This document shows positions 6,053 to 30,867 of a stretch of DNA of 64,000 nucleotides, piece after piece. The notes under the pieces are model-generated. The model did not search any database. It saw only the letters and a program-made list of their open reading frames with translations, and was not told the origin of the DNA. The position numbers and the translations under genes are program-made. The DNA comes from Agrococcus jejuensis. GTDB taxonomy: Bacteria > Actinomycetota > Actinomycetes > Actinomycetales > Microbacteriaceae. The stretch covers positions 349,245 to 413,244 of the forward strand of contig NZ_VEFR01000002.1 of NCBI RefSeq assembly GCF_007679035.1, in the 5' to 3' direction. The stretch's first letter is position 1; each line of letters begins with the position of its first letter.

Positions 6053-7195
6053 ATGGAGTCGCGGCCCGCCGAGCACGTGCTGCTCGAGGAGGCGTTGGGC
6101 CGCCCCGGGCGCCTCATCTCCCGCGACCCGTTCGGCGCGGGCGTCATCGCCGGATTCGAGGTCGACGACGACGGCACGACGCTCACCTACTTCGTCGACA
6201 CCTCGGGCGAGGACGTGCCCGAGGAGACGGGGCTCGTGCTGCGCTCGGGCGACGCGCTGCAGGCGCGCGTCTGGCTGCATCCCGCCGATCCGCGCCTGCC
6301 GACGCTGCCCGTCGCCGCGTTCGGCGAGTCGGCGGCGCGACTGCTCGAGCGCTTCGGCATCGCAGGCACGTTCGAGTCGGAGATCGTCGCCTATCGACCG
6401 GGCAAGCGCGCGGTGCTGCGGCTGCGCGGCGAGGAGGCGGAGCACTTCCTGAAGATCGTGCCGCCCGGCGTCACCGAGCACATCGCGAGCCTGCACTCGG
6501 CGCTCGCGAAGGCTGGCGTGCCCGTGCCGCGCATCCCTCGCTGGGCGCCGCAGGGCTGCATGCTCATCGAGCAGGCGAAGGGGCTCGCGGGACCGAAGGC
6601 CGCTCTGTCGCTCGCGCCCGATGCGCTGCTGCAGGCGGTGGACGTCGTGCGGCTGGGGCTCGAGCGCGCCGAGATCACGGGTGCCGCCCGGCCGGCGCTC
6701 GGATCCCGCATCGACTGGTACGCCGCACGCCTCGCGCAGGTCTCGCCCGAGCGGGCGGGTCTCGCGATGGCGCTGCGCGACGCCGTGCACGCCCGCCGCC
6801 GCGACGTGACGCTGCCCGTCGTCGTGCACGGCGACCTGCACCTCGGCCAGCTCTTCTTCACCGACGACGTCGTGACGGGACTCATCGACGTCGACACCGC
6901 GGGCGTCGGCGACCGCGACGAGGACTCCGCCGCGTTCATCGGCCACGCCCGCACGAGCGCGCTGCTCACCGAGGCGGCAGGCCGGTCGGAGGCGGCGCTC
7001 GCCCTGCACGTGCTCGCCGACGTCGCATCCGAGCGCTGGCTCGACGGCCCGCACTCGCGCTCGCTCACGGCGGCGCACCTCATCGCGCACGCGCTGTCGG
7101 CGATCGAGCAGGGTGCGGGCGACCGCGCCGACCGGATGCTCGACGAGGCCTCGTCGCTCGTGCACGTGGCGCCGAAGGCGGCGAGCGCGGGCTGA
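6053..7195 (+). CDS. Phosphotransferase-family protein (aminoglycoside phosphotransferase / APH-like kinase fold)
   Basis: The catalytic-loop motif VVHGDLHLGQ is present, as is the metal-binding motif IDVDTAGVGD. The ATG at 6053 follows the palindromic site. Confidence 0.7.
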   Translation: MESRPAEHVLLEEALGRPGRLISRDPFGAGVIAGFEVDDDGTTLTYFVDTSGEDVPEETGLVLRSGDALQARVWLHPADPRLPTLPVAAFGESAARLLERFGIAGTFESEIVAYRPGKRAVLRLRGEEAEHFLKIVPPGVTEHIASLHSALAKAGVPVPRIPRWAPQGCMLIEQAKGLAGPKAALSLAPDALLQAVDVVRLGLERAEITGAARPALGSRIDWYAARLAQVSPERAGLAMALRDAVHARRRDVTLPVVVHGDLHLGQLFFTDDVVTGLIDVDTAGVGDRDEDSAAFIGHARTSALLTEAAGRSEAALALHVLADVASERWLDGPHSRSLTAAHLIAHALSAIEQGAGDRADRMLDEASSLVHVAPKAASAG

Positions 7196-7224
7196 GGCGC
7201 TGCGGCTCGGCTCGTGCCTGGCTA

Positions 7225-7565
7225 CGCGGTCGGTCGGTCGGCGATTGGTCACGATCGGCTCATGACTGGTCACGATCGGCGCCTGACTGGTCACGATTGG
7301 CCCATGACTGGTCAGAGTTGGCAGCCAGCTGCGACCAGTCGACGACCAACCATGACCAGTGCTCGACCGAGCCATCGGCGAGTGGTCCACTCGTCGCGGT
7401 GACTGGTCACTCGATCCGGCGATCGGTCACTCGTTGTGGCGACTGGTCACTCGTCGGGATCGACTGGTCACCGATCGTTCCCACGAGCGACCATTCCCGA
7501 CCACGAGCGACCAGTCAGCACCACGTGTGACCAGTCAGGCCCACGAGCGACCGATCGACCGCCCG
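7225..7565. repeat. Minisatellite-like array of about 15 units with a ~21-bp period and core (T)GACTGGTCA(C) or its complement GACCAGTC
   Basis: Examples: gattggtcacgatcggctca / tgactggtcacgatcggcgcc / tgactggtcacgattggccca / tgactggtcagagttggcagc ... The units switch to the complementary orientation (cgaccagtc) in the second half. No coherent protein is encoded; the six-frame peptides are 7-aa periodic. Confidence 0.7.
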
Positions 7566-7573
7566 CATCTGCG

Positions 7574-7591
7574 CATGAGAGGTCTCTCATG
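7574..7591. promoter_or_regulatory. 18-bp palindrome CATGAGAGgtCTCTCATG, about 77 bp upstream of the small secreted protein gene
   Basis: It is a perfect 8+8 inverted repeat and a second copy of the motif at 5992-6009. Confidence 0.4.
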
Positions 7592-7667
7592 CGGTCGTCA
7601 TACCCGCCTCACGGGGTCTCGCGAGAGTGGTGCTCGCACACAGGGAGCACCGAAGAAGGAGACCATC

Positions 7668-8108
7668 ATGGAGCAGCGCACCTGGATCACCGTCGGCGCA
7701 GCCGGCACCCTCGGCCTCGGCCTCGTCGCAGCCGGAGCCCTCGCCACCGCCAACGCCATGGACGTCGACGACGCGACGCAGGTCGCGCAGGGCGGCGTCG
7801 TGGTCGGCGACGACCTCGTCGAGCGGCCGGGCGTCACCATCCGCGTCACCGACGGGCACGCATCCGTCGTCTCGGCGCCCACCGCGTCGAGCGCCCCCGC
7901 AGCGCCGGCCCCCACGAGCTCGGCTCCGTCGGCGCCCACGGCCCCGGCACCCGCACCCACCCAGTCGGCGATCTCGGCGCCGTCGCCCGTCGCCGCCCCG
8001 GCTCCCGCCCCGGCCCCCGCCCCCGCCCCGGCGCCCGCTCCCGCATGGGACAGCGCGCCGTCGGCGGCCAGCCCCGTCTCGCCCGTCTCCGCCCCCTCGG
8101 GCGACTGA
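7668..8108 (+). CDS. Small secreted Ala/Pro-rich protein (hypothetical) with a (PA)n tract
   Basis: A strong Shine-Dalgarno (AAGGAGA) lies 7 nt upstream of the ATG. The signal peptide is MEQRTWITVGAAGTLGLGLVAAGALATANA, and the C-terminus includes PAPAPAPAPAPAPAPA. The nucleotide sequence there is a CCCCGC/CCCGGC microsatellite. Confidence 0.6.
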   Translation: MEQRTWITVGAAGTLGLGLVAAGALATANAMDVDDATQVAQGGVVVGDDLVERPGVTIRVTDGHASVVSAPTASSAPAAPAPTSSAPSAPTAPAPAPTQSAISAPSPVAAPAPAPAPAPAPAPAPAWDSAPSAASPVSPVSAPSGD

Positions 8109-8214
8109 CGAGGGCTGGAGGGGTCGGCGTCCGACCGTCGGACGTCGACCCCTCCGCACTCCCCCGGCGCCGCCGACGCATCCTGCGTCGACGGCGCCGC
8201 TGCGTGCGTCCGGA

Positions 8215-8600
8215 CGAGCTGACTGGTCACGCGTGGTTGGGAATGGTCGCTCGTTGCAACCACGAGTGACCAGTCGAAGGTGACGAGTGACCAGTCGGCG
8301 CAACGAGTGACCAGCCGGTGCCGCAGCGGTCAGCGGATGCGGCGCTGGTCGCTCGCCTCGCATGGAGGACGACTGGTCGCAGTTGCACCGGACTGGTCGC
8401 AGTTGCGGTGCACCTGCGACCAGTCGAGCGTGCATCTTCGACCAGCCTGGTGCAATCGTGACCAGTCATGCCGGCGTCGGCGCGCGCCTCGTCGTCGACT
8501 GGTCGCGAATGGCTGTCGACTGGTCGGACTTGGCAGCCAACTGCGACCAGTCACGAGTCGACTGCGACCCGTCACGAGCCACGTGCGACCGGTCGTGGAG
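8215..8600. repeat. Second ~21-bp-period array with the same GACTGGTC / GACCAGTC core, about 17 units
   Basis: Examples: tgaccagtcgaaggtgacgag / tgaccagtcggcgcaacgag / actggtcgcagttgcaccgg / actggtcgcagttgcggtgcac / gaccagtcgagcgtgcatcttc ... It flanks the small secreted gene on the other side. Confidence 0.7.
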
Positions 8601-8603
8601 ACA

Positions 8604-8643
8604 GGCGGATGCGGGCGGCCCTGGCCGGCCGTCCGCATCCGCC
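8604..8643 (-). terminator. GC-rich stem-loop (GGCGGATGCGGGCGGCC...GGCCGTCCGCATCCGCC) just after the stop of the minus-strand M20 gene
   Basis: The stem is 17 bp with one mismatch. There is no clear U-tract, which is common in high-GC actinobacteria. Confidence 0.45.
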
Positions 8644-8653
8644 CTCCCGAGCG

Positions 8654-9832
8654 TCAGCCCTCGAACGTGGCCTTCGCGTCGGCGACGATCGCCGGGTCGC
8701 GGAACGCCGACAGCGCGGTCGCCGCGAGCATCACGGCACCGTCGGCGATCGCCGGCGGCGCCAGCTCGGCCGAGCCGGCCGCCGCCGCGAACTCGCGCGT
8801 GTGCGGTGCGACGTCGCGCGCGAGGCAGATCATCGGGTGGATCGACGGCACCACGTGGCTCACGTTGCCCATGTCGGTCGAGCCCGCGAGCGTCGGGTCG
8901 GGCTCGAGCTCGCGGCCCAGCACGCCGTACGCCGCCTCGGCGACGTCGACGAGCGTGACGTTCGACCGCAGCGAGAAGTACGGCGGCGTGTTCTCGGCGA
9001 TCTCGACCGTCGTGCCCGTCGCGAGCGCGGCGCCGTCGAAGCAGGCGCGCACGCGCGGCACGACGTCGGAGAGCAGGTGCTCGCGGTCGCCGGCGCGCAC
9101 GAAGATCCGCAGCGCCGCATGCTCGGGGATGATGTTCGGCGCCTGGCCGCCGTTCGTGATGATGGCGTGGATGCGCACGTCGTCGGTCATCTGCTGGCGC
9201 AGGAGGCCGATCGCCGTGAGCGACAGCGTCGCGGCGTCGAGCGCGTTGCGGCCGATCTCGGGGGCGCCGGCTGCGTGGGCCGCCTTGCCGTGGAAGTCGA
9301 CGTCGAGCGCGACGCGCGACAGCGACGAGCCGCGCACGGCGTCCGATCCCGACGGGTGCACCATGATCGCGAGGTCGACGCCGTCGAGCACGCCGCCGTC
9401 GATCATCGGCACCTTGCCGGCTGCGCCTTCCTCGCCCGGGCTGCCGATCACCACGAGGTGCGCGGGCACGGGCGACGCCACGAGCGCGTCCTTCACGAGC
9501 ATCCCCGCGCCGAGACCGGCGGCGGCGATGACGTTGTGGCCGCACGCGTGGCCGATCTCCTCGAGCGCGTCGTACTCGCAGAAGATCGCGATCGTCGGGG
9601 CGTCGGCGCCCGCACCCGGCGTCGACCAGCGGCCGACGAAGGCGGTCTCGAGACCGGCGAAGCCGCGCTCGACGGCGAAGCCCGCGAGCTCGAGCTCGGC
9701 CGTGAGGCGCGCGGCGGCGTGCGTCTCGGTGAAGCGGATCTCGGGATGCGCGTGCAGGTCGGCGGCGACGTCGACGAGCGTCGTGAGGCGCGCGGAGAGC
9801 AGCGTCTGCAGCTCGGCGATCGTCGCGGGCAT
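8654..9832 (-). CDS. M20-family amidohydrolase (AbgB / hippurate-hydrolase-like metallopeptidase)
   Basis: The 392-aa translation from MPATIAELQ has M20 metal-binding segments (IGHACGHN, GSPGEEGAAGK, HGKAAHAAG). It lies downstream of abgT on the same strand. Confidence 0.8.
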   Translation of the reverse strand: MPATIAELQTLLSARLTTLVDVAADLHAHPEIRFTETHAAARLTAELELAGFAVERGFAGLETAFVGRWSTPGAGADAPTIAIFCEYDALEEIGHACGHNVIAAAGLGAGMLVKDALVASPVPAHLVVIGSPGEEGAAGKVPMIDGGVLDGVDLAIMVHPSGSDAVRGSSLSRVALDVDFHGKAAHAAGAPEIGRNALDAATLSLTAIGLLRQQMTDDVRIHAIITNGGQAPNIIPEHAALRIFVRAGDREHLLSDVVPRVRACFDGAALATGTTVEIAENTPPYFSLRSNVTLVDVAEAAYGVLGRELEPDPTLAGSTDMGNVSHVVPSIHPMICLARDVAPHTREFAAAAGSAELAPPAIADGAVMLAATALSAFRDPAIVADAKATFEG

Positions 9833-11602: not shown

Positions 11603-12634
11603 ATGTTCGACATGCACCCCACGGTCCCCTCGCATCCGCACGACCTGTCGGATTCGGACCTGGCGCTCGTGGCCGCCCTGCAGGACGCGCCGCGGGCGTC
11701 GTGGGCGGCGATCGGACGCGTCATCGGCACGAGCGCACCCACCGCCAGGCGCCGCTGGGAGGCGATCGCCGCGTCGGGTGCGGCATGGACCACGACGTAT
11801 GCGGGCTTCTCGGCGGGGCTGCTGTTCGGCCTCGCCGAGGTGCGCTGCCGCCCCGGCACCGTCGACGCCGTCGCGGCTGCCCTGCGGCAGCATCCGAAGG
11901 TCATCTCCGTCACGGGCATGACGGGCGATCGCGACCTGTCGCTCACGATCCTCGCCGACGACATGGCGCAGTTCCGCAGGCTCATCCAGTCGTGGCTCGG
12001 CACCCACGAGGCGGTGACGGGCGTGCGCACGACGATCGTGACGCGCATGATCTCCGACGGCTCGCGGTGGCGCGCCGTCGGCCCGCCGCACGACCGCCCG
12101 CCGCAGTCGACGCTCGACGAGGGCCGCACCGACGGCGACGCCGCCACGGGTGAGCAGTGGCGCGCCGTGCTCACGGAGCTCGAGCGCGACGGCCGCGCGA
12201 GCGCGCGCGACATCGCCGCGCGCATCGGCACGTCGGAGGCGCACGCGCGCCGCGTCGTGCGGCGGCTGCTCGCGAGCGGATGGATCCAGCAGCGCATCGA
12301 CGTGTCCCTCGAGCAGCGCATGTGGCCGCACGCGCTCGCGCTGTGGCTCGTCGTGCCCGCCGCCCGGCTCGAGGCGACGGCCATGCAGATCGCCGACCTG
12401 CCGATGACGCGCATGTGCGCGGCCCTCGCCGGCGGCGCGTCGAACCTCTACGTCATCGTGTGGCTGCGCGAGATCGCCGACGCCGCGACCATGGAGGCCG
12501 AGCTCGCCCGCAGCCTCGAGCTGCGCGTGCTCGACCGCGCCATCCTGCTGCACTACTACAAGCGCGTCGGCCATCTCTTCGACGACGCGAACCGCCGCGA
12601 GGGCCACGTGTCGTGGCTGGCGCCGTCGCCGTAG
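11603..12634 (+). CDS. Lrp/AsnC-family transcriptional regulator with tandem domains
   Basis: Two HTH_AsnC plus RAM-like halves are visible (DLALVAALQDAPRASWAAIGRVIGTSAPTARRRWEA... and WRAVLTELERDGRASARDIAARIGTSEAHARRVVRRL...). It is transcribed divergently from the abgT-M20 operon. Confidence 0.8.
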   Translation: MFDMHPTVPSHPHDLSDSDLALVAALQDAPRASWAAIGRVIGTSAPTARRRWEAIAASGAAWTTTYAGFSAGLLFGLAEVRCRPGTVDAVAAALRQHPKVISVTGMTGDRDLSLTILADDMAQFRRLIQSWLGTHEAVTGVRTTIVTRMISDGSRWRAVGPPHDRPPQSTLDEGRTDGDAATGEQWRAVLTELERDGRASARDIAARIGTSEAHARRVVRRLLASGWIQQRIDVSLEQRMWPHALALWLVVPAARLEATAMQIADLPMTRMCAALAGGASNLYVIVWLREIADAATMEAELARSLELRVLDRAILLHYYKRVGHLFDDANRREGHVSWLAPSP

Positions 12635-12640
12635 GGGCGA

Positions 12641-12800
12641 CCGGCTGGCCGAGGAGCGGCCTTGGTGGGCACCTCTCGAGGCTCACTTCGTTCGCACCTC
12701 GAGGAGCGGTCATGGGAACCTCGTGGCGCGCTCCCCCTCCGACCCTCGAGGTGCGAGCGCAGCGAGCCTCGCAAGGGTCTCGCCGATCAGCAGTGGTGGC
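12641..12800. repeat. Dispersed GC-rich palindromic element (CCTCGAGGTGCGAGCGCAGCGAGCCTCG core)
   Basis: It contains CACCTCGAGGAGCGG and CCTCGAGGTGCGAGCGCAGCGAGCCTCGCAAGG, boxes shared with 59575-59665 and 62440-62610. Confidence 0.5.
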
Positions 12801-12837
12801 AGGATGCGAGCAGCGCATCCCCGAAGAAGGAGCCCGC

Positions 12838-13143
12838 ATGTCGTTCCAGGCCTACCTCGACGCCGTCGAGGCGAAGACCGGCAAGACCCCGCGGGCGCTC
12901 GTCGCCGAGGCGACGGAGCTCGGGTTCGGCGCCGACACGAAGGCCGGCCCCATCCTCGAATGGCTCAAGGATGCGTACGGACTCGGCCGCGGCCATGGGA
13001 TGGCGATGGTGCACGTGATCACGAAGGGCCCGGGCATCGGGTCGAAGCACGTCGGCTCGACGGGCTCGCACCGCGACGAGTCGGACACCCTCTGGCTCGA
13101 CGGCAAGGACGCCAAGCCCGCCGACTGGGGCCAGCAGGGCTGA
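12838..13143 (+). CDS. DUF4287-family small protein
   Basis: The 101-aa translation (MSFQAYLDAVEAKTGKTPRALVAEA...GHGMAMVHVI) matches DUF4287. A Shine-Dalgarno (GAAGGAG) lies 7 nt upstream. Confidence 0.7.
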   Translation: MSFQAYLDAVEAKTGKTPRALVAEATELGFGADTKAGPILEWLKDAYGLGRGHGMAMVHVITKGPGIGSKHVGSTGSHRDESDTLWLDGKDAKPADWGQQG

Positions 13144-13264: not shown

Positions 13265-16200
13265 TCAGCCCTCGCCGCGTCGGCGGCGCACGCCGAGCAC
13301 GAGGCCGGCGCCGATCGCGAGCATCGCGGCGAGCGCGAGCCAGCCGGCGACCGCGACGCCCGTGCGCGGCAGGTCGCTGCCCGCCTGGCCGCCCTCGGCG
13401 CCCGACTCCGGGCCGCCGTCGTCGGATCCCGGACCGCTCGGAGCGGGAGCGCTGGGCTCGGGCGTGCCCGGGTCGCTCGGTGCGGGCGTGCCGGGATCGC
13501 TGGGACCGGGCGTGCCCGGGTCGCTGGGTCCGGGCGTGCCGGGGTCCTGCGCGAACTCGATGACGATCTCGCCGGTCACGATCGTGCCGTCGGCCGCGAT
13601 GCCCGTCCAGCGCACCGGCGTCGGGTTGCGGGTGAAGCCGACCTCGGGGGTGAACGTGACGAGGCCGGTGGCGACGTCGACCTCCCACACGCCCTCGCCG
13701 GGCACGACGAGTCGCTGCACCTGCGCGCCGAACGCGTCGAGCAGACGCACCGAGTCGCGCTGCAGGGTCGGCGACACGGATCCCGGGTCGACCGTCACGG
13801 GGCTGCCCTCGGGAGCGCTCGCCGCGATGTCGGCGACGACCTCGGTCGAGCCGGCCGTGACCTGCGGGCGGTACGTCGCCGCGGCGGCGGTGCCGTTGGC
13901 GTCGAGGACGCGGTAGGCGACGCCCGCGCCGATGCCGACGAATCCGGCCTCGGGCGTGAACACGATGCGACCGTCGACGAGCGCGTAGGAGCCCTCGCCG
14001 GCCACGACCACGACGGCCGCCGGGGCGCCGACCGCGTCCAGCAGCGTGAGCGACTCGCGCACGAGCGGCACCCCCGGGTCGCCGGCGGCGTCGTTCGCGA
14101 GCGGATCGACCGACTGCGGTGCGCGCTGCACGCCGCTCGACGAGTCGTCGGCGGCGACGGGCGTCACGGCCGAGACCGTCGCACGCGCCGTGCCGGTCGC
14201 GGGGATGCCGTTGGCGTCGCTCACGCGGTAGCCGACCGCGGGCGTCGTGCCCACGAAGCCGGGCTCCGGGGTGAAGACGAGCACGGGCGCGTCGCCGCTG
14301 CGGTCGATCGTCCAGACGCCCTGGCCGTCGACGACGACGCGGTCGATGGGCTGACCGGCGTCGTCGAGCAGCTGCAGCGTCTGCGGGCGCAGCGGCACGT
14401 CGGGGTCGCCGGCCTCGTCGTTCGCGAGCACGTCGACGACGACGGGTGCGCCCTGGCGGCCCGTGCCGAGGTCGGGGCTCGCGATCGGCGCGACGGCGCC
14501 GATCGTCGCGCCGACCGTCGCGGTCGCCACGGTGCCGTTGGCGTCGGCGACGCGGTACGGCACGGGCGTGGCGTCGCCCGAGAACGTCGCAGCGGGCGTG
14601 AAGACCACGACGGGCGCGGCAGGCGTCGAGCGGTCGATCGTCCACACGCCCTGGCCGTCGACGACGAGGCGGTCGACGCCTGCACCGTCGGCATCCACGA
14701 GCTCGAGGGTCGCGGGTCGCAGCGGCACGCTCGGGTGACCGGCGGCGTCGTTCGCGAGCACGTCGATCGTCGCGGCGGCACCCTGGCGGGCGGCGCCGAC
14801 GTCGTCCGTCGCGACGGGCAGCACGGCCGTGATGGTCACGCCGAGGGACGCGGTCGCGCGCGTGCCGTTGACGTCGGCCACGACGTAGCCCACCGGCGTC
14901 GCGTCGCCCCGGAACGTCGGCAGCGGCGTGAACACCACGCGCGGAGCGGCGGGGTCGTCGCGGTCGATCGACCAGGTGCCCTCGTCCTCGACCTCGCGGG
15001 TCGCGACGGGCTCGCCCGCGGCGTCGAGCAGCATGAGCGACGCCGGGTCGAGCGCGACGGCGGGGTCGCCGGCACGGTCGTTCGCGAGCGGGTCGATCCG
15101 CACGGGCGAACCCTGCAGAGCAGCGCCGGCGTCGTCGGCCGCCACCGGCGTCACGGCCGTGACCTCGGCGATGACGATCGCGGCCGTCGTCCAGGTGCCG
15201 TTGGCGTCGGCGACGGCGTACTGCACCGAGGCGCTGCCCGTGAAGGTCGGGTCGGTCGCGAACACGATGCGCGGCGTCGCACCGGCGCGGTCGATCGACC
15301 ACGTGCCGACGCCGGGCACCGACACCTCGTCGACGCGGGCGCCGTTGGCGTCGAGCAGCGTGAGCGACGACGCGACGAGCGGCACCCCGGGTGCACCGGC
15401 GCGGTCGTTGTCGAGCGGCGAGACGGCGACGACGGCGCCCTGGCGGGCCTCGCCCTCGTCGTCGACGGCGATGGGCGTCACGGGCGTGACGCGCACGGCG
15501 ACCTCGGCCGTGGCCGTCGCACCGTTGGCGTCGGCGATCCGGTAGGACACGGGCGTCGCGTCGCCTGCGAACGTCGCGAGCGGCTCGAACACGAGCCTCG
15601 GGGCCGCCGCATCCGTGCGGTCGATGCGCCAGGTGCCCTGGTCGGCCACGTCGAGCGTCGTCACGGCGTCGCCGGCCGCGTCGAGCAGCGTGAGCGTCGA
15701 CGGGCGCAGCGCGATCGACGGGTGGCCCGCCTGATCGTTCGCGAGCACGAGGATCGTCGCCGAGCGCCCCTGCGTCGTCGTGGCCTCGTCGTCGGTCGCG
15801 ACGGGCGTCACGGCGGTCGAGGTCGGCGTGAAGGTCGCCTCCACGGCCGTGCCGTTGGCGTCGGCGACGCGGTAGGCGACGGGCGTCGCGGCGCCGGTGT
15901 GGTCGGCCTCGGGCGTGAAGACGATGCGGGGGCCGCCCATGGCGTCGCGGTCGATGGCGTAGCGGCCCTCGCCGGCGACGACGAGCACGTCGACGGGTGC
16001 GCCGGCGGCGGTCAGCAGCGTGAGCGTCGACGGCACGAGGGGCACCTCGGTGCGACCGGGCACGTCGTTCGCGAGCGGTGCGATCGAGACGGGCGCGCCC
16101 TGCAGGCCGGACGCGACGTCGTCGACCGCCACGGGGGCGACGGCGGCGACCGCGACGACGATCTCGGCGCGCGCGAGCGTGCCGTTCGCGTCGGCGACGC

Positions 16201-19200
16201 GGTACTCGACGGGGGCCGCGTCGCCGCGGAACCCCGCGGCGGGCGCGAACCGCACGACCGGCAGGTCGTCATCGCCGAGCTCGATCGTCCACGTGCCCTC
16301 GTCGAGCACGAAGATGCGGTCGGTCGGCTCGCCGTCGGCGTCGAGCAGCGTGAGCGTCGACGGCACGAGCGGCACGTCGGGGTGGCCGGCGGCGTCGTTC
16401 GCGAGCACGTCGACGGTCATCGGCGCGCCCTGGTAGGTCTGGCCGCGGTCGGCCTCGGCCGTGGGCGTGACGGCGACGATCGTCGCAGCGATCGACGAGC
16501 TCGTGCGCGTGCCGTTGGCGTCGCGCACCTCGTACTCGATCGTCGCGGTGCCGCTGTAGTCGGCCTCGGGGGCGAACGTGACGGTGGGGCCTCCGGCGCC
16601 GGCGCGGTCGATCGACCAGGTGCCGACACCCGGCACCACGACGCGTGCGATGGGCTCGCCGTCCGCGTCGAGCAGCAGGAGCGAGTCGGCGTCGAGCGGC
16701 ACCTCGTCGAGGCCCGCGACGTCGTTGGCGAGCGGCGAGACCGTGACGGGCGCGCCCTGGCGGGCGGTGCCTGCGTCGGCGACGGCGACGGGTGCGACGC
16801 CCGTGATCGTCGCGGCGAAGCCGGCCTCGACGGTCGTGCCGTTCTCGTCGGCGACGCGGTAGCGCACGGCGTCCGCGGTGCCCGTGAAGCCGGGCAGCGG
16901 CGTGAACACGATGCGCGGACCGCCCTCGGCGTCCAGCTCGAGCGCGTACGTGCCCGCATCCGCGATCGTCACGCTCGGCGCGTCCGCGCCGTCCGCGTCG
17001 AGCAGCGTGAGCGTCGAGGGCACGAGCGGCACGTCGGGGTGGCCGGCCGCGTCGTTCGCGAGCGGTGCGACGGATGCGCGCGCACCCTGTCGCGCGGCGG
17101 CCTCGTCGTCGTTGGCGACGGGCACGACGGGAGCGACGCGCACGCCGACGGTCGAGGCCGCCGTCGTGCTGTTCGCGTCGGCGACGCGGTACGCGACGGT
17201 CGTCGCGGGACCCGCGAAGCCGAGCTCGGGTGCGAAGCGCACGACGGGGGCGGCCTCGACGGTGCGGTCGACGGTCCACGTGCCCTCGCCCGTCACGACG
17301 AGCTCGTCGACGGCGGTCTCGCCGTCGAGCAGCGTCAGGGTCGACGGCACGAGGGGCACGTCGGGGTCGCCCGCGGCGTCGTTCGCGACGACGTCGATCG
17401 TCACGGGAGCGCCCTGGCGGGTGCCGGCGGAGTTGGGGTTCGCGACGGGCAGCACGGCGCCGATCGTGGCCGTCGCGGTCGACGTCGCGGGGGTGCCGTT
17501 GGCGTCGGCGACGCGGTAGGCGACGGTCGACTGGCCGACGAAGCCGGGCAGCGGCGCGAAGACGAGCACGGGGGCGTCGACGTCGGCGCGGTCGACGGTC
17601 CAGGTGCCCTGCCCCTCGATCTCGAGCTCGTCGACGGCGGTCTCGCCATCGAGCAGCGAGAGCGATGCGGGCGCGAGCGGCACGTCGGGGTGGCCGGCGA
17701 CGTCGTTCTCGATGGCGTCGATCGTCACCGAGGCGCCCTGGCGGGCAGCGCCGCCGTCGGGAGCGGCCGTCGGGGTCACGGCGTCGATCGTCACGTCGAC
17801 GACGGCGGATGCGTGCGTGCCGTTGTCGTCGGAGACGCGGTACGCGATGGGGCTGGCATCGCCCGTGAAGCCGGGCAGCGGTGCGAAGACGAGGTACGGG
17901 CCGCCCGCGGTGGTGCGGTCGATCGTCCACGTGCCCTCGTCGGCGACCTCGATGCGGTCCACGGGGGCGCCGTCGACGAGCAGCGTGAGCGTGGCGGGGT
18001 CGAGCGGCACCTCGTCGAGCCCGGCGACGTCGTTCGCGAGCACCGCGATCGACACGGGCGCGCCCTGGCGGCCGGTGGCGGCGTCGGGGTCGGCGACGGG
18101 GGTCACGGCGAGCGACGTCGGCGTGAACGTCGCGCTCGTGCGGGTGCCGTTGGCGTCGGCGACGCGGTAGGTCACCGGCGTCGCGGCGCCGACCCACGCG
18201 TCGAGCGGCGTGAAGACGATGCGGGGGCCGCCCTCGGCGTCGGCATCGATCTCGTAGGTGCCCTGGCCGTCGATCGCGACGGTCGCGGCCGGCTGGCCGT
18301 CGGCGCCGAGCAGCTCGAGCGTCTCGGGGTCGAGCGGCACGTCGTCGCGGCCCGCCGCATCGTTCGCGAGGGGTGCGACCGAGACGGGAGCGCCCTGGCG
18401 GGCGGAGGCGACGTCGGCGGTCGCGACGGGCGTCACGGCCTCGACGACCGCGGTGACGGTCGCGATCGCGACGGTGCCGTTGGCGTCGGCGACGCCGTAG
18501 CGCGCGGGCGTCGCGGTGCCCCGGAAGGACGGCTCCGGGGTGAACGCGATGCGCGGCATCGTGGCGTCGGCGACCACGGCGTACGTGCCCTGGCCCGCGA
18601 CGGTCACGGTCGCGACGGGGGTGCCGGCGTCGTCGACGAGCGTGAGCGTCGTCGGGTCGAGCGGCACGTCGTCGAGGCCGGCCGCGTCGTTCGCGAGCGG
18701 TGCGACGGATGCGGTGGCACCCTGGCGCGAGGTGGCGACGTCGGGCCGCGCGATCGGCGTGACCGCGTCGATGATCGCGGTCGCGGTCGAGGTCGCGACG
18801 GTGCCGTTGGCGTCGGAGACGCGGTACGACACGGTCGAGGTGCTCGCGAACGAGGGCAGCGGTGCGAAGACGAGCACGGGGGCGTCCTCGTCGTCGCGGT
18901 CGACGCGCCACGTGCCCTGGCCGGCGATCTCGACCTCGTCGGCGGCGGCGCCCTCGGCGTCGACGAGCGTGAGGGTCGAGGCGACGATCGGCACGGCGGG
19001 GTGGCCGGCGTCGTCGTTCGCGACCGCGTCGATCGTCACGGTGGCGCCCTGACGGGCCTCGCCCGCGTCGGCGACGGCGATGGGCGTGACGGCTGCGATC
19101 GTGGCGGTGACCTGCGCGGTCGCCGTCGTGCCGTTGGCGTCGGCGACGACGTACGTCACGGCGTCGGGCGTGCCGACGTAGGTCGCGACGGGCGTGAAGA

Positions 19201-22200
19201 CGATGCGCGGCGCCACGAGGTTGGCGCGGTCGATCGTCCAGGTGCCGACGCCGTCGACCTCGATGCTCGTGACGGGGGCGCCGTCGACGAGCAGGCGCAC
19301 GGATGCGGGGTCGAGCGCGACGTCGGGGTGGCCGGCGGCGTCGTTCGTGAGCACGGCGACCGAGGCTGCGGCGCCCTGGCGGGCGGTGGCGGCATCGTCG
19401 GTCGCGGTGGGCGTGACGGCGACGAGCGTGGCGGTCGCGGTCGACGTCGCGACGGTGCCGTTGGCGTCGGCGACGCGGTAGGCGACGGTCGACGAGCCCG
19501 CGTACGTGGGCAGCGGCGTGAAGACGAGCACGGGCGCGCTCTCGGTGCGGCGGTCGACGGTCCAGGCTCCCTGGCCGTCGATCACGAGCTCGTCGACCGC
19601 AGCCTCGCCGTCGAGCAGCATGAGCGTCGGGCGGGCGAGCGGCACGTCGGCGGCGCCGGCGCGGTCGTTCGCGAGCGCGTCGATCGTGACCGTCGTGCCC
19701 TGGTGGGCCTCGCCGACGTCCGGCGTCGCGACGGGCGTGACGGCACCGATCGTCGGGGTGACGGTCGCGGTCGTTGTCGTGCCGTTGGCGTCGGCGACGC
19801 GATAGGTCACGGGCGCGGCCGTGCCGACGAACGACGGTGCGGGGGTGAACTCGACGCGCGGAGCCGCGGCCGTCGAGGCGTCGATGGCGTACGTGCCACC
19901 GACGACGCGCACGGTCGTCGCCGGTGCGCCGGTGCCGTCGAGCAGCGTGAGCGTCGAGGGCACGAGACGCACGTCGGGGTGGCCGGCGCGGTCGTTGGCG
20001 AGCACGGCGACGGAGGCCGGGGCGCCCTGTCGTGCGGAGGCGACGTCGGGGTTGGCGGTGGGCGTCACGGCGTCGATCGTCGCGGCGACGGCTGCCGTGG
20101 CCCGGGTGCCGTTGGCGTCGGCGATCGAGTAGTCGACGGGCGTGGCCTCGCCGACGAAGCCGGGCAGCGGCGTGAACACGACCCGCGGGGCGGATGCGGT
20201 GGCGCGGTCGATCGTCCAGGTGCCCTGGCCGTCGACGACGAGCTCGGTGACGAGCGCGCTGCCCGCGCCGACGAGGCGCAGGGAGGCGGGGTCGAGGGGC
20301 ACGGCCCGGTCGCCGGCGACGTCGTTGGCGAGCACGGGCAGCGACACGGGCGCGCCCTGGCGTGCCGAGCCCTCGTCGGCGTTGGCGACCGGCGTGACGG
20401 CCGTCAGCGTCGGCGTGAACGTCGCGGTCGTCGCCGTGCCGTTGGCGTCGGCGACGCGGTACGCGACGCCGGTCGCGGTGCCGACGAAGGCGGGCAGCGG
20501 CGTGAAGGCGATGCGGGGGCCGCCGGCGGCGGCGCGGTCGAGCGCGTACGTGCCCTGGTCCGCGACGACGAGCACGTCGACGGCGGTCGTGCCGTCGAGC
20601 AGCGTGATCGAGCCGGGCTCGAGCGCGACGGCGGCGTCGCCGGGCACGTCGTTCGCGAGCGGTGCGACGGCGACGGTCGAGCCCTGTCGGCCGGTCGCGG
20701 CGTCGTCGGCGGCGATGGGCGTCACGGCCGTGAGGGTCGCGGCGTACGTCGCGCTCGTCGTGGTGCCGTTGGCGTCGGCGACGCGGTAGGCCACGGCGTC
20801 GGCGGTGCCGACGTACGTCGTCTCGGGCGTGAAGACGATGCGGGGTCCGCCCTCCCCTCCGCGCTCGATGGCGTAGGTGCCCTGCCCGGGCACGCGCAGC
20901 GAGTCGACGGCAGCCGTGCCGTCGAGCAGCGTGAGCGTGTCGGCGTCGAGCTGCACGTCGGCGTGGCCGGGGATGTCGTTGCGCAGCGGCTCGACGGCGA
21001 CGGCTGCGCCCTGGCGACCCGTGGCGGCGTCGTCGATCGCCACGGGCGTCACGGCCGTGAGGGTCGGCGTCGCGGTCGACGTCGTGCGCGTGCCGTTGGC
21101 GTCGGCGACCGAGTAGGTGACGGACGCGGCGGTGCCGACGAAGGTCGCGTCGGGCGTGAAGACGACGCGCGGCGCGGCGGCGTTCGTCGCGTCGATCGCG
21201 TAGGAGCCTCCGGTGACCGCGACGGTCGTCGCGGGGGCGCCCTGGGCGTCGAGCAGCTGGAGCGTGCCGGGTCGCAGCGCGACGGCGGGGTCGCCGGCGA
21301 GATCGTTGGCGAGCACCGCCATCGAGACCCGCGCACCCTGGCGCGCGGTGCCGGCGTCGGGGTTGGCGACGGGCCGCACGGCCGAGAGGGTCGGGCGGAA
21401 GGTCGCGGTCGTCGTCGTGCCGTTGGCGTCGGCGACGCGGTAGGTCACGACGGTGGCGTTGCCGGTGAAGGTCGACACGGGCGTGAACACGATGCGCGGG
21501 CCGCCCTGGGCGCCGCGGTCGAGCGCGTACGTGCCCTGGCCGGCGACGACGACCTCGTCGACGACGGTCGTGCCGTCGAGCAGCGAGAGGGTCGCGGGGT
21601 CGAGCGGCACGTCGGGGTGGCCGGCGTCGTCGTTGTCCAGCGGAGCGACCGATGCGACGGCGCCCTGGCGCGCGGTGGCGAAGTCGTCGTCGGCGCTCGG
21701 CGTGACGGGGGCGATGGTCGCGGTGATGGTCGTGGTGGCGACCGTGCCGTTCTGGTCGCGCACCTCGTAGTCGATCGAGGCGTCGCCCGTGAATCCGCGC
21801 TCGGGCGCGAAGGTCACGGTGGGCGCGGCGGGGTCGGTGCGATCGACGGTCCAGCGGCCGACGCCGGCGACGACGAGCTCGGCGACGGGCTGACCGTCGT
21901 CGTCGAGCAGCGTGAACGACTCGGGGTCGAGCGGCACGTCGTCGATGCCGGGCGCGTCGTTCTCGAGGGGCGCGACCGTGACCGATGCGCCCTGGCGCGC
22001 TGCGCCGCCGTCGCGGGCGGCGACGGGCTGCACGCCCGAGATCGTGGGCGTGAAGCGCGCGGTCGTCGTGGTGCCGTTGGCGTCGGCGACGCGGTAGCGC
22101 ACGGGATCGGCGGGGCCGACGAACGATGCGAGCGGCGTGAAGACGATCGTGGGCACGCCGGCGACCTGCTCGATGCGGTACGAGCCTGCGGCGACGTCGA

Positions 22201-25200
22201 CGATCGTCGCGGGCTGGTCGTTCGCGTCGAGCAGCTCGAGCGTCTCGGGGTCGAGCGGCACGTCCGGGTGTCCGGCGGCGTCGTTCGCGAGCGGCGCGAC
22301 GGATGCCTCAGCACCCTGACGCGCGGCGGCCTGGTCGTCGGCGGCGACGGGCGTGACCGCCTCGAGCATCGCGGTGGCGCGCGCGGTCGTGACGGTGCCG
22401 TTGGCGTCGGCGACGGCGTAGGTCACGCGCGAGGTCGCACCGCCGAACGACGGCAGCGGGGTGAAGACGAGCACCGGCGCGGCGGCGACGGACCGGTCGA
22501 CGCGCCACGTGCCGCGATCCTGGACCACGAGCTCGTCGACGTCGTTGCCGGCGCCGTCCCGCAGCGTGAGCGTGGACTGCACGAGCGGCACGTCGGGGTG
22601 GCCGGCCTGGTCGTTGGCGACGGCGTCGATGCGCACGGGAAGGCCCTGGCGCTCCGACTGGCGGTCGTTCGTCGCCACGGGCACGACGGACGTGATCGTC
22701 GGCGTGAACGTCGACGAGGTGCGCGTGCCGTTGGCGTCGGCGACCGAGTAGGTCACGGGTGCGGCCTCGCCGGTGAACGATGCGGCAGGCGAGAAGACGA
22801 TGCGCGGCGCGGTCTCGGATGCCTCGATCGCGTAGCGGCCGCCGTCGACGTCGACGGTCGTCGCCGGCTGGCCCGCGGTGTCGAGCAGCACGAGCGTCGA
22901 GGGCACGAGCGGCACGTCGGCGAGGCCCGGGCGATCGTTCGCGAGCGGCGCGACGGATGCGGGCGCACCCTGGCGCGCGGCGGCGACGTCGGGCGTCGCG
23001 GTGGGCGTGACCGCCGTGATGGTCGCGGTCGCGACCGAGGTCGCAGCGGTGCCGTTGGCGTCGAGCACGCGGTAGGCGACCGGCTCGGTGGTGCCGACGA
23101 AGGAGGGCTGCGGCGTGAAGACGAGCACGGGCGCCTCGGCGGTGGTGCGGTCGACGCGCCATGCACCGACGACGGTGACGACCTCGTCGGTCGCCGCTCC
23201 GGCGCCGTCGAGCAGCGCGAGCGTCGCGGGTGCGAGCGGCACGTCGGCGTGGCCGGCGAGGTCGTTCGCGACGGCGTCGATGCGCACCGGGGCGCCCTGG
23301 CGCGCGGAGGCCCAGTCGGCCTGGGCCGTCGGGGTCACGGCGTCGATCGTCGGGGTGACGGTCGCGGTCGTCGTCGTGCCGTTGGCGTCGGCGACGCGGT
23401 ACGTCACGGGGGTCGCCTGCCCCGTGAACGACGGGATGGGCGTGAACTCGACGCGGGGGGCAGCGGCGTCGGCGCGCGTGATGGCGTAGGTGCCCTGGCC
23501 GTCGATCGTCACCGTCGCCGCGGGCTGGCCGTCGGCGCCGAGCAGCTCGAGCGTCGTGGGGCGCAGCGGCACGTCGGGGTGGCCGCTCGCGTCGTTCGCG
23601 AGCACGGCGACGGATGCGGGAGCGCCCTGACGGCCGGCGGCGACGTCGTCGGCGGCGAGCGGCGTGACCGCCGTGATCGTCGCGACGGCGGTCGAGGCGG
23701 CCTGGGTGCCGTTGGCGTCGAGCACCCGGTACGGGGCCGCGGTCGTGAGACCCGAGAAGCCGGGCAGCGGCGCGAAGACGAGCTCGGGGCCGCCGTCGGC
23801 GTCGAGGTCGACCGTCCAGGTGCCCTCGTCGGCGACGACGAGCTCGGTGACGGGCGTCGCGCCCGAGAGCAGGCGCAGCGTGGCGGGCTGGAGCGGCACG
23901 TCGGGGTCGCCGGCCTCGTCGTTGGCGAGCGCGTCGATGCGCACGGTCTCGCCCTGGCGGCCGTCGCCGGCGTCGGGGGCCGCGGTGGGCGTGACGGCCG
24001 TGAGGATGGCGCGGGCGGTGGCGTCGGCGGGCGTGCCGTTGTCGTCGCGCACGCGGTAGTCGACGGCGGCGGTGCCGACGAAGCCGGCGAGCGGCGTGAA
24101 GACGAGGCTCGCGGTGGCGCGGTCGATGGTCCAGGTGCCCTGGCCGTCGACGACGATCTCCGACACCTCGGCGTCGCCGTCGAGCAGCACGAGCGACGCG
24201 TCGTCGAGCGGCACGTCGGCGTCGCCGGGCTCGTCGTTCGCGAGCGCGTCGATCACGACGGTGGCGCCCTGGCGGGCCGTGCCCTCGTCGTCGATGGCGA
24301 CGGGCGTCACGGCGCCGATCGTGGCGATGGCGGTCGAGGTGGCCTGCGTGCCGTTCTCGTCGAGCACGCGGTAGGCGACGGCAGCCGTCGCGCCGGTGAA
24401 GGTCGCGAGGGGCGTGAAGACGAGCACGGGCTCGGCGCCGTCGCGGTCGACCGTCCAGGTGCCCTCGTTCGGCACGACGATCTCGTCGACGGGGGCGCCG
24501 TCGGCGAGCAGCGCGAGGGACGTGGGCCGCAGCGGCACGTCGGCGTCGCCGGCCTCGTCGTTGGCGAGGGCGTCGATCGTCGCGGGCGCGCCCTGTCGGG
24601 CGGAGCCGGCGTCGGGTCGCGCGATCGGCGTGACGGCGCCGATCGTCGGCGTGAATCGGGCGGTGGCGGTCGTGCCGTTGGCGTCGGCGACGCGGTAGGT
24701 CACGGGCGCGGCCTCGCCGGCGAAGGCGGCGTCGGGCGTGAAGACGATGCGCGGCTGCGCGCCGTCGACGATCGCGTACGAGCCGCCGGCGACCGTCACG
24801 GTCTCGGCGGGGGCGCCGTTCGCGTCGAGCAGCTCGAGCGTGTCGGCGACGAGGGGCACGTCGGCGTCGCCTGCGAGGTCGTTGGCGAGCGGTGCGACGG
24901 ATGCGGGCGCGCCCTGGCGCGCGCTGGCGACGTCGTCGACGGCGACGGGCGTCACGGCGCCGATCGTCACGGTGACGACCGCGGTCGTCGTGGTGCCGTT
25001 CGCGTCGGCGACGCGGTAGGTCACGGCGGTCGGCGTGCCCACGTACGAGGCGAGGGGCGTGAACACGACGCGCGGCGCCGACGCCGTGCGGGTGTCGAGC
25101 GCGTATGTGCCCGCGCCGTCGACGCGCACGGAGGTCGCGGGCTGCCCTGCCGCGTCGAGCAGCGTCACGGAGCCGGGTGCGAGCGGCACGTCGGGGTGGC

Positions 25201-30751: not shown

Positions 30752-30867
30752 GGCGAGGAGACCTCTCGGAGGGCATGACTGCAGGGATTGCGACGAGCGC
30801 AGAGATGCTCCGGCGGCACTGATTCCGTAGCGTCACGATCCTATGCGTCCGCACCGCACATTCGTGA

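Follow-up and report, generated by a model that had tools for sequence, protein, structure and literature searches.

Foldback arrays flanking a small gene of Agrococcus jejuensis are copies of a dispersed actinobacterial repeat family associated with an AbiEi/DUF559 nuclease gene

The stretch of DNA analyzed here (the window) comprises 64,000 nucleotides of the genome of Agrococcus jejuensis (contig NZ_VEFR01000002.1, positions 349,245 to 413,244) and contains a small gene for a proline- and alanine-rich protein that is bracketed by two arrays, A and B, of a short repeat. Among the neighbors of the arrays are genes for an APH kinase and for an M20 amidohydrolase, together with one whose translation reads as that of an AbgT-like transporter. 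The arrays are local copies of a repeat family that is dispersed through intergenic regions of Agrococcus and other actinobacteria, mostly at the 3' ends of genes. A reading made from the letters of this DNA alone (the sequence-only reading) had described two arrays of 15–17 units with a period of about 21 bp on the two sides of the gene, and formal analysis bears out both the period and the number. Tandem Repeats Finder detected arrays with a period of 20–21 bp at 7234–7322, 7376–7471, 7481–7552, 8262–8318, and 8535–8594, that is, to the left and to the right of the small gene. Measured against dinucleotide shuffles, the autocorrelation of array A (7236–7560) had peaks at lags 21 and 20 (z 6.3 and 5.9, respectively), and that of array B (8214–8600) had one at lag 21 (z 5.3); a coding control gave no such peak. 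We count about 15 units in array A (7243–7556) and about 16 in array B (8221–8594). The 8-mer GACTGGTC, which forms part of the unit, occurs 21 times in the window, with 19 of the copies located within 7264–8552; dinucleotide shuffles of the window contained 3.05 copies on average, and none of 100 shuffles attained 21.

The repeat unit is directional and consists of GACTGGTCRC followed by a spacer of about 10–11 nucleotides with the weak consensus nnnTGGnnnn. A palindromic TGACnnGTCA core had been proposed, and a near-palindromic core is indeed enriched, but the unit has a direction and is not a true palindrome. The orientation of the units does switch within the arrays, as had also been noticed, but it does so in an ordered rather than a haphazard manner: array A is composed of four forward (+) and two inverted (−) units followed by five + and four − units, and array B of two + and three −, then three + and three −, and finally two + and three − units. 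The two arrays are thus five tandemly juxtaposed foldback modules, or imperfect long palindromes (Table 1). The junction between the + and the − run is fixed in these modules at 27 bp from core to core, and an inverted-repeat search revealed arms that are up to 95% complementary. Folding of the single strand is stronger than that of shuffled sequences, with z scores of −4.6 for 7236–7560 and −7.2 for 8214–8600. Because the mixture of 20- and 21-bp periods breaks any reading frame, and because the GC content drops to 0.64–0.69 from the 0.72–0.78 of the genes alongside, the arrays are non-coding, in agreement with the earlier view. They are also, as had been argued, not CRISPR arrays: the core is only 10 bp in length, as against the identical 23- to 47-bp repeats of CRISPR arrays, the spacers of about 10 bp resemble one another rather than being unique, the orientation flips, and we noted no cas gene, and no rep or par gene either, in the immediate vicinity of the arrays, the rest of the window not having been screened for such genes.

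Table 1. Positions of features at the small-gene locus and at related array loci. Coordinates are those of the window unless a locus in another genome (L number) is given
Feature	Position	Strand	Remarks
Small gene	7668–8108	+	146-residue Pro/Ala-rich protein; hydrophobic N-terminus; secretion inferred by eye
Palindrome GCATGAGAGGTCTCTCATGC	7573–7592		20 bp, near perfect; about 75 bp upstream of small-gene start; outside the repeat family
Foldback module A1	7243–7361		Four + cores at 7243, 7264, 7285, and 7306; inverted cores at 7331–7340 and 7352–7361; 27-bp junction
Foldback module A2	7380–7556		+ cores at about 7380 (degenerate), 7401, 7421, 7441, and 7462; inverted cores at 7487, 7507, 7527, and 7547
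Inverted repeat I2, within module A2	Arms 7420–7454 and 7523–7557		
Foldback module B1	8221–8316		+ cores at 8221 and 8241; inverted cores at 8266, 8287, and 8307; inverted repeats I5 and I9
Foldback module B2	8343–8467		+ cores at 8343, 8371, and 8391; inverted cores at 8416, 8438, and 8458; inverted repeats I4 (95% complementary) and I10 (94% complementary)
Foldback module B3	8497–8594		+ cores at 8497 and 8518; inverted cores at 8543, 8564, and 8585; inverted repeats I3 and I8
GC-rich hairpin, 19-bp stem	8117–8155		I6, 95% complementary; right after small-gene stop; terminator-like, without U-tract
Hairpin, 17-bp stem	8604–8643		I7; beside stop codon (8654) of convergent M20 amidohydrolase gene; terminator-like
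Stop codons within cores	L108 5909–5912 and 7092–7166; L047 5297–5306; L070 1212–1221		
Central hairpin repeat of about 90 bp	L054 4300–4410; L060 7600–7700; L069 5320–5425		

The dispersal of the family emerged from a pattern scan for two phased units in 185,579 species genomes, in which all locus counts are lower bounds. The scan matched at least 110 loci, from which coding look-alikes were then removed. At least 12 loci were found in Agrococcus versicolor and at least nine in Agrococcus sp. CPCC 206402, and two metagenome-assembled genomes (MAGs) of Marmoricola, which we label Marmoricola A and Marmoricola B, contained at least 27 and at least seven, respectively. Further carriers of arrays among the matches listed were a Jatrophihabitantaceae MAG and, with single loci, Nocardioides, a Nocardioidaceae MAG, and Agromyces. 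The window is 86–90% identical in nucleotide sequence to the Agrococcus loci L033 (A. versicolor) and L047 (CPCC 206402). Inside each genome the full unit of 20–21 bp is homogenized and the spacers are specific to that genome; only the core, GACTGGTC(R)(C), is common to the different genomes. A motif scan by itself would wrongly pool coding look-alikes with the non-coding arrays. In Streptomyces malaysiense (L002 539–900), for example, GACTGGTC recurs at a strict 21-bp period within an unrelated coding peptide repeat; the irregular repeats of an Actinomycetota MAG (L025 4415–4740) are likewise coding and unrelated, and several matches in Streptomyces or outside the Actinobacteria were dropped as coding repeats such as EDDWSPP and GDQSGWG.

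The arrangement of units in the other genomes follows a rule. Among the matches listed, all 33 of the 33 simple arrays with two orientations in Agrococcus, Marmoricola A, and the Jatrophihabitantaceae MAG had the + run before the − run, and all four such arrays listed for Marmoricola B had the opposite order. Within a genome the +− junction keeps to one length (27 bp for both the window and CPCC 206402, 47 bp for A. versicolor), whereas −+ distances are heterogeneous. The module is therefore a + run, a junction, and a − run, and a −+ boundary is the place where two modules abut. Between the runs, the middle segment (X in the layout [+]n X [−]m) ranges from a 3-nucleotide loop through about 100 bp to one or two genes. 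In a Marmoricola MAG we also observed that three GACTGGTC modules are centered on an unrelated hairpin repeat of about 90 bp (GTGAACATGGG...GGTGCTCCCCACGYGCTGCAGCRCGTGGGGAGCACC...); it represents a second repeat family nested in these modules or else an internal segment that they have in common. The borders of the modules in the Jatrophihabitantaceae MAG extend as palindromes.

With respect to their surroundings, the arrays lay between convergent genes in 18 cases, co-directional genes in 17, and divergent genes in four, among the matches listed for which both neighbors could be oriented; the orientations came from a crude gene caller based on the GC content of third codon positions (GC3), and about half of the arrays could not be oriented with it. 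It is often the TGA of a TGAC..GTCA core, on one strand or the other, that serves as the stop codon of an adjacent gene, so that the arrays occupy the intergenic region to the very edge of the reading frame.

These observations bear directly on the idea, put forward in the sequence-only reading, that the arrays are an iteron, a partition site, or a titration sponge for a nearby regulator of the OmpR, MarR, or IclR type. The 20- to 21-bp phasing and the near-palindromic core on which that idea was built are real, and arrays are present on both sides of the small gene in CPCC 206402 (L047) as well as in the window. We nonetheless consider it very improbable that they are operator, iteron, partition, or titration sites specific to this locus and serving a dimeric regulator of the small gene, and the claim is largely refuted: the same units are present at dozens of unrelated intergenic loci, including loci in other families of Actinobacteria, and are depleted from divergent promoter regions, and the A. 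versicolor counterpart of the small gene lacks such arrays. Furthermore, the small gene has a conserved palindrome of its own, GCATGAGAGGTCTCTCATGC, which was kept at all of the orthologous loci seen (L047, L033, L129, and L130), including those at which the arrays differ or are absent, and which probably serves that gene as an operator or promoter element. Nor was there a match to array A in a plasmid collection searched with blastn in distant mode, and the same pattern scan applied to viral contigs gave six stray single matches. The small gene is a passenger between modules, and, as we read them, the arrays have no dedicated link to it or to the regulators nearby.

A related idea, that the arrays are chromosomal clusters of the clt type, takes its appeal from the length of the conserved core, which is 8 bp. 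The FtsK-like conjugative DNA translocase TraB of Streptomyces plasmids recognizes a repeated 8-bp sequence (TRS), and clt-like clusters of it are present on Streptomyces chromosomes (PMC4170104). We regard this explanation as extremely improbable, since neither traB nor genes for conjugation lie next to the arrays, no plasmid match was obtained, and the units occur in strictly paired inverted runs that are linked to a nuclease gene, as described below.

Related genomes differ in how many units an array has and in whether the array is there at all, and arrays mark rearrangement breakpoints around the small gene. In a strain that is 97.9% identical (L129, GCA_029960005.1), module A1 has five + units instead of the four in the window, one extra unit of 21 bp (2055–2165 compared to 7243–7322), and the contig ends in poly-G/C junk right after the small gene. 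On the strength of this extra unit and the contig break, the arrays behave as variable-number tandem repeats (VNTRs) and break short-read assemblies. In CPCC 206402 arrays are found at both positions with fewer units, five + units upstream and one + and four − units downstream, the last downstream core overlapping the stop codon of the M20 gene. Comparison of unit numbers between strains, which had been proposed as a check on the arrays, thus does reveal differences. In A. versicolor, meanwhile, the small gene is inverted between the APH kinase and M20 amidohydrolase genes (L033 1450–2014 compared to window 7571–8134), and its locus lacks GACTGGTC arrays and has a different repeat of about 14 bp ('gcagcgcac') upstream. 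Finally, an identical small protein is encoded in L130 (Logan SRR28031437, 2263–2510) after GntR-CMD-Ldh_2 rather than after HK-APH. The junction there carries a module of three + and two − units, and homology to the window begins at 7521, inside array A; this context represents either relocation of a cassette or an assembly chimera at the repeat. The presence of arrays also differs at other sites: in L113 an array separates two convergent genes that in L111 are 12 bp apart, and A. versicolor has a full array of six + and three − units (L033 6144–6350, within 6076–6453) where the window (12634–12838) has only degenerate relics (such as gcacctcgaGGAGCGGTCA) together with a 'cacctcgagg' repeat.

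Is any gene consistently found with the arrays? All-versus-all clustering of the GC3-supported open reading frames near arrays yielded one family that was directly flanked by arrays in several genomes; no other directly flanked family, and no transposase family, recurred at the array loci. The flanked protein is about 300 residues in length and, by domain matches, is composed of an N-terminal winged helix-turn-helix (wHTH) domain of the AbiEi_4 family and a C-terminal DUF559/MTES_1575 nuclease domain; searches with PADLOC and NCBIfam contributed no more than weak matches to DUF559 and AbiEi. Its gene has GACTGGTC arrays of its own genome's subtype on both sides in A. versicolor (L070), Marmoricola A (L108, in which six + units precede the gene and four − units follow it), and Marmoricola B (L026); the sampled DNA of array loci contained no further member of the family beyond these three. 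In some cases the stop codon of the nuclease gene is itself provided by a core. The Agrococcus orthologues L111, L112, and L113, whose products are 62–69% identical, are likewise bracketed by GACTGGTC arrays. In four Agrococcus assemblies the gene is syntenic, lying between ispG and rseP (which encodes an M50 protease), and it diverges faster than its neighbors, the orthologues being 72–73% identical in nucleotide sequence as compared to 83–91% for the adjacent genes.

An independent test of the association started from protein homology rather than from the arrays. Flanking inverted tandem arrays or hairpins, of a sequence specific to the lineage, were present at all ten of the ten homologues examined, in one case weakly. 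A homologue with 49% identity (L118) has the same layout with the core GAGCGGTC (GAGCGGTCRC) at a 30-bp period. Among the Nocardioidaceae, L119 has 32-bp units (GAGTCGGCGCAnCTGCAGC), five upstream and seven inverted downstream, forming arms of 123 nucleotides that are 84% complementary; L120 and L122 have inverted tandem units of 31–32 bp on both sides, and L121 is the weak case. In the Microbacteriaceae, L114, L116, and L117 have one long, lineage-specific hairpin on each side. Thus, one nuclease family is consistently associated, in a physical sense, with flanking inverted repeats across the Actinobacteria. The tandem periods in the various lineages are 20–21 or 30–32 bp, or about two or three helical turns, and this, together with the AbiEi-type wHTH domain of the associated protein, upholds the earlier argument that the spacing of the cores reflects helical phase.

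The structure of the protein was modeled with AlphaFold2 (mean pLDDT, a per-residue confidence measure, 90.8). In Foldseek searches the N-terminal two-thirds of the model resembled Rv2827c and AbiEi (1ZEL and 6Y8Q), and the C-terminal domain resembled the catalytic domain of I-Bth0305I, a homing endonuclease (TM score 0.79), as well as the DUF559 structure 3HRL. An alignment of homologues revealed invariant residues of a catalytic type (D230, E241, Y242, G244, D257, and R260). No gene for DUF1814/AbiEii was found beside any of the homologues examined. Proteins of the AbiEi family with wHTH domains bind inverted repeats, with positive co-operativity in the case of AbiEi of S. agalactiae and negative co-operativity in the case of Rv2827c (PMC7319586). 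We note that most metagenome homologues of the AbiEi/DUF559 protein are on contigs of 1.0–1.5 kb, barely longer than the gene; such short contigs would fit with repeats that break assemblies, but the median contig of the collection is also about 1 kb, and the observation is not decisive.

How might the nuclease and the repeats be connected? We lean slightly toward the view that the arrays are dispersed foldback modules whose units are bound by a cognate wHTH nuclease that maintains or spreads them in trans. Each unit would be a predicted binding site for the wHTH domain of an AbiEi/DUF559 nuclease, and a spacing of two or three turns would place the protomers on one face of the DNA and so permit co-operative binding. 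The nuclease, encoded elsewhere in the genome, would maintain and homogenize the arrays and occasionally seed gene-less ones, possibly by cleavage-initiated recombination or gene conversion, while unit number would drift through slippage. The RAYT transposases (REP-associated tyrosine transposases, named for the repetitive extragenic palindromic, or REP, sequences) are thought to serve REPINs, the paired REP sequences that can form hairpins, in a like manner. As long inverted repeats, the arrays may secondarily act as bidirectional terminators, and they would make the small gene a recombinationally unstable cassette. We infer binding, co-operativity of the kind that the phasing would allow, and maintenance in trans from sequence and from the company that the arrays keep.

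Several points weigh against this proposal. What ties the protein to the unit is guilt by association. With an identity of just 24–32%, the proteins of Agrococcus and Marmoricola nonetheless share the same core, and a Micrococcales homologue that is 39% identical has an entirely different flanking repeat; the co-variation of protein and core is therefore not simple. The window does not contain the cognate nuclease gene, which would have to be encoded elsewhere in the genome. In lineages with other units the repeats are known from the flanks of the gene only, and arrays with a single orientation (array A of L047, and L046) mean that hairpin formation is not universal. Target-site duplications were sought at the module borders inspected, and none was seen. 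Nucleases of the PD-(D/E)XK/Vsr type are, to our knowledge, not known to mobilize repeats on their own.

The arrays could instead be elements that serve the host (bidirectional terminators, stabilizers of mRNA 3' ends, or arrays for a nucleoid protein) and that grew by slippage and spread by recombination, the nuclease gene being a selfish or foreign gene insulated by them. The strong bias toward 3' ends and convergent genes, the modules that abut stop codons, and the strong folding of the single strand would all be expected of such elements, as would the bracketing of unrelated genes, which include a DinB-like gene (L046), a gene for a secreted protein (L022), and the small gene of the window. 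Termination, however, requires neither a core common to three families of Actinobacteria nor periods that correspond to helical turns, the arrays of one orientation cannot form hairpins, and the window already has separate GC-rich hairpins at the ends of both genes (Table 1). The presence of differing inverted repeats at ten of ten homologues is hard to attribute to coincidence. We judge this explanation to be unlikely.

The layout [+]n X [−]m, with a middle segment of anything from a short loop to one or two genes, is reminiscent of MITEs (miniature transposable elements with inverted repeats), as are the recurrence of the same internal 90-bp segment at three Marmoricola loci, the presence/absence polymorphism (L113 compared to L111, and L033 compared to the window), and the appearance of the small gene in a different context (L130). 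The arrays would then be non-autonomous foldback transposons whose terminal inverted repeats, themselves made up of repeats, are moved by a conventional transposase encoded elsewhere, and the AbiEi/DUF559 gene and the small gene would be cargo captured between two such arms. But clustering of open reading frames disclosed no transposase family recurring near the arrays, the inspected borders had no target-site duplications, and the DUF559 gene is syntenic in the four Agrococcus assemblies and is therefore not hopping. Moreover, the same supposed cargo keeps flanking inverted repeats across lineages in which the repeats themselves are unrelated. We assign this explanation a low probability. The arrays share terminal inverted repeats and presence/absence polymorphism with MITEs and foldback transposons. 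A partner gene with the same ends does exist, and it encodes a nuclease, at a syntenic position, and not a known transposase.

The view that a cognate nuclease maintains the arrays invites comparison with several known systems. Interspersed intergenic repeats are well characterized in Proteobacteria as REP sequences, bacterial interspersed mosaic elements (BIMEs), and REPINs with their RAYT genes; in Gram-positive bacteria of high GC content, as far as we know, little is understood about them. The arrays resemble the REP/REPIN-RAYT system (PMC3116915) in being short extragenic repeats with many copies per genome (at least nine to at least 27 in three genomes), in having inverted partners that are able to form hairpins and are clustered in higher-order arrays, in flanking a gene at a stable and apparently vertically inherited position, and in changing their sequence between lineages together with that gene. 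They differ in the defining enzyme, which is an AbiEi-wHTH protein with a DUF559/Vsr-like PD-(D/E)XK nuclease domain rather than a Y1/HUH transposase, in the host phylum, which is the Actinobacteria, and in the unit, which is not itself a hairpin-forming palindrome, each arm being made up of two to nine head-to-tail units phased at two or three turns. With eukaryotic Foldback and Galileo transposons (PMC3573991, PMC4079207) they share long terminal inverted repeats made of tandem sub-repeats, a middle that ranges from next to nothing to coding cargo, arms of variable length, and an association with inversions and rearrangements; the present element, however, is bacterial and far smaller, and its associated protein is a nuclease of another fold. 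The associated protein has the two-domain fold of AbiEi, whose family, including the antitoxin Rv2827c, binds sets of inverted repeats at its operators (PMC7319586), but no AbiEii (DUF1814) toxin partner accompanies the homologues examined, a nuclease domain being fused instead, and, unlike the promoter repeats of abiEi-abiEii operons in AbiE type IV toxin-antitoxin systems, these repeats bracket the gene and are scattered genome-wide. The approximately 20-bp direct repeats in helical phase, which would suit co-operative binding, recall plasmid iterons and centromere arrays of the ParR/parC type; here, in contrast, the arrays are chromosomal, are not located at a replication origin, occupy many loci, and are paired with an inverted run, with no rep or par gene among the immediate neighbors. 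Finally, E. coli BIMEs, which are mosaics of REPs, likewise consist of short, oriented repeats that cluster between genes, at their 3' ends, but the REPs of BIMEs alternate in orientation one by one, whereas in our arrays a run of one orientation is followed by a run of the other.

Interspersed extragenic repeats with a cognate flanked gene are already known as a kind, and there is a substantial probability that the proposed pairing of repeat and enzyme is real. The literature on DUF559, on AbiEi, on REP/RAYT in Actinobacteria, and on bacterial foldback elements and MITEs was searched, and no description of such arrays or of a link between DUF559/AbiEi proteins and repeats was found. There is, in our estimation, somewhat less than an even chance that the AbiEi-wHTH/DUF559 protein and its flanking arrays constitute a previously unrecognized, Actinobacteria-wide partnership of repeat and enzyme, analogous to REPIN-RAYT but with a nuclease of the Vsr/EDxHD type, whose arrays escaped in Agrococcus and Marmoricola to dozens of intergenic regions, where they would drive variation in unit number, inversions, and the relocation of bracketed genes such as the small gene of the window. 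If so, then the very common and functionally uncharacterized actinobacterial proteins annotated as 'AbiEi domain' or 'DUF559' would acquire a role and a predicted DNA target, a partnership of the REPIN-RAYT type would have arisen with an unrelated nuclease fold, and an origin would be known for broken assemblies, VNTR-like variation, and rearrangements among these genomes. Because both the protein and the predicted 10-bp core are defined, the idea is directly testable. As a caution for annotation, such arrays should not be read as operators specific to the locus in which they are found.

Lastly, we turn to the remaining features of the locus. A search of Pfam with the product of the small gene matched no family; the hexamer microsatellite previously noticed in the gene, which encodes PAPAPA, is present as a period-6 (CCGCCC)n tract at 7993–8044. 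A scan of 6800–9000 against Rfam (E ≤ 1) gave nothing at the gathering score, the miRNA-like hairpins that were returned having 20–31 bits as against thresholds of 78–128, and a scan of the locus for σ70 promoters and intrinsic terminators found none, including no canonical terminator. Downstream of the arrays, the minus strand of the window contains one very long open reading frame of high GC3, which extends over about 5,850 codons (13265–30832).

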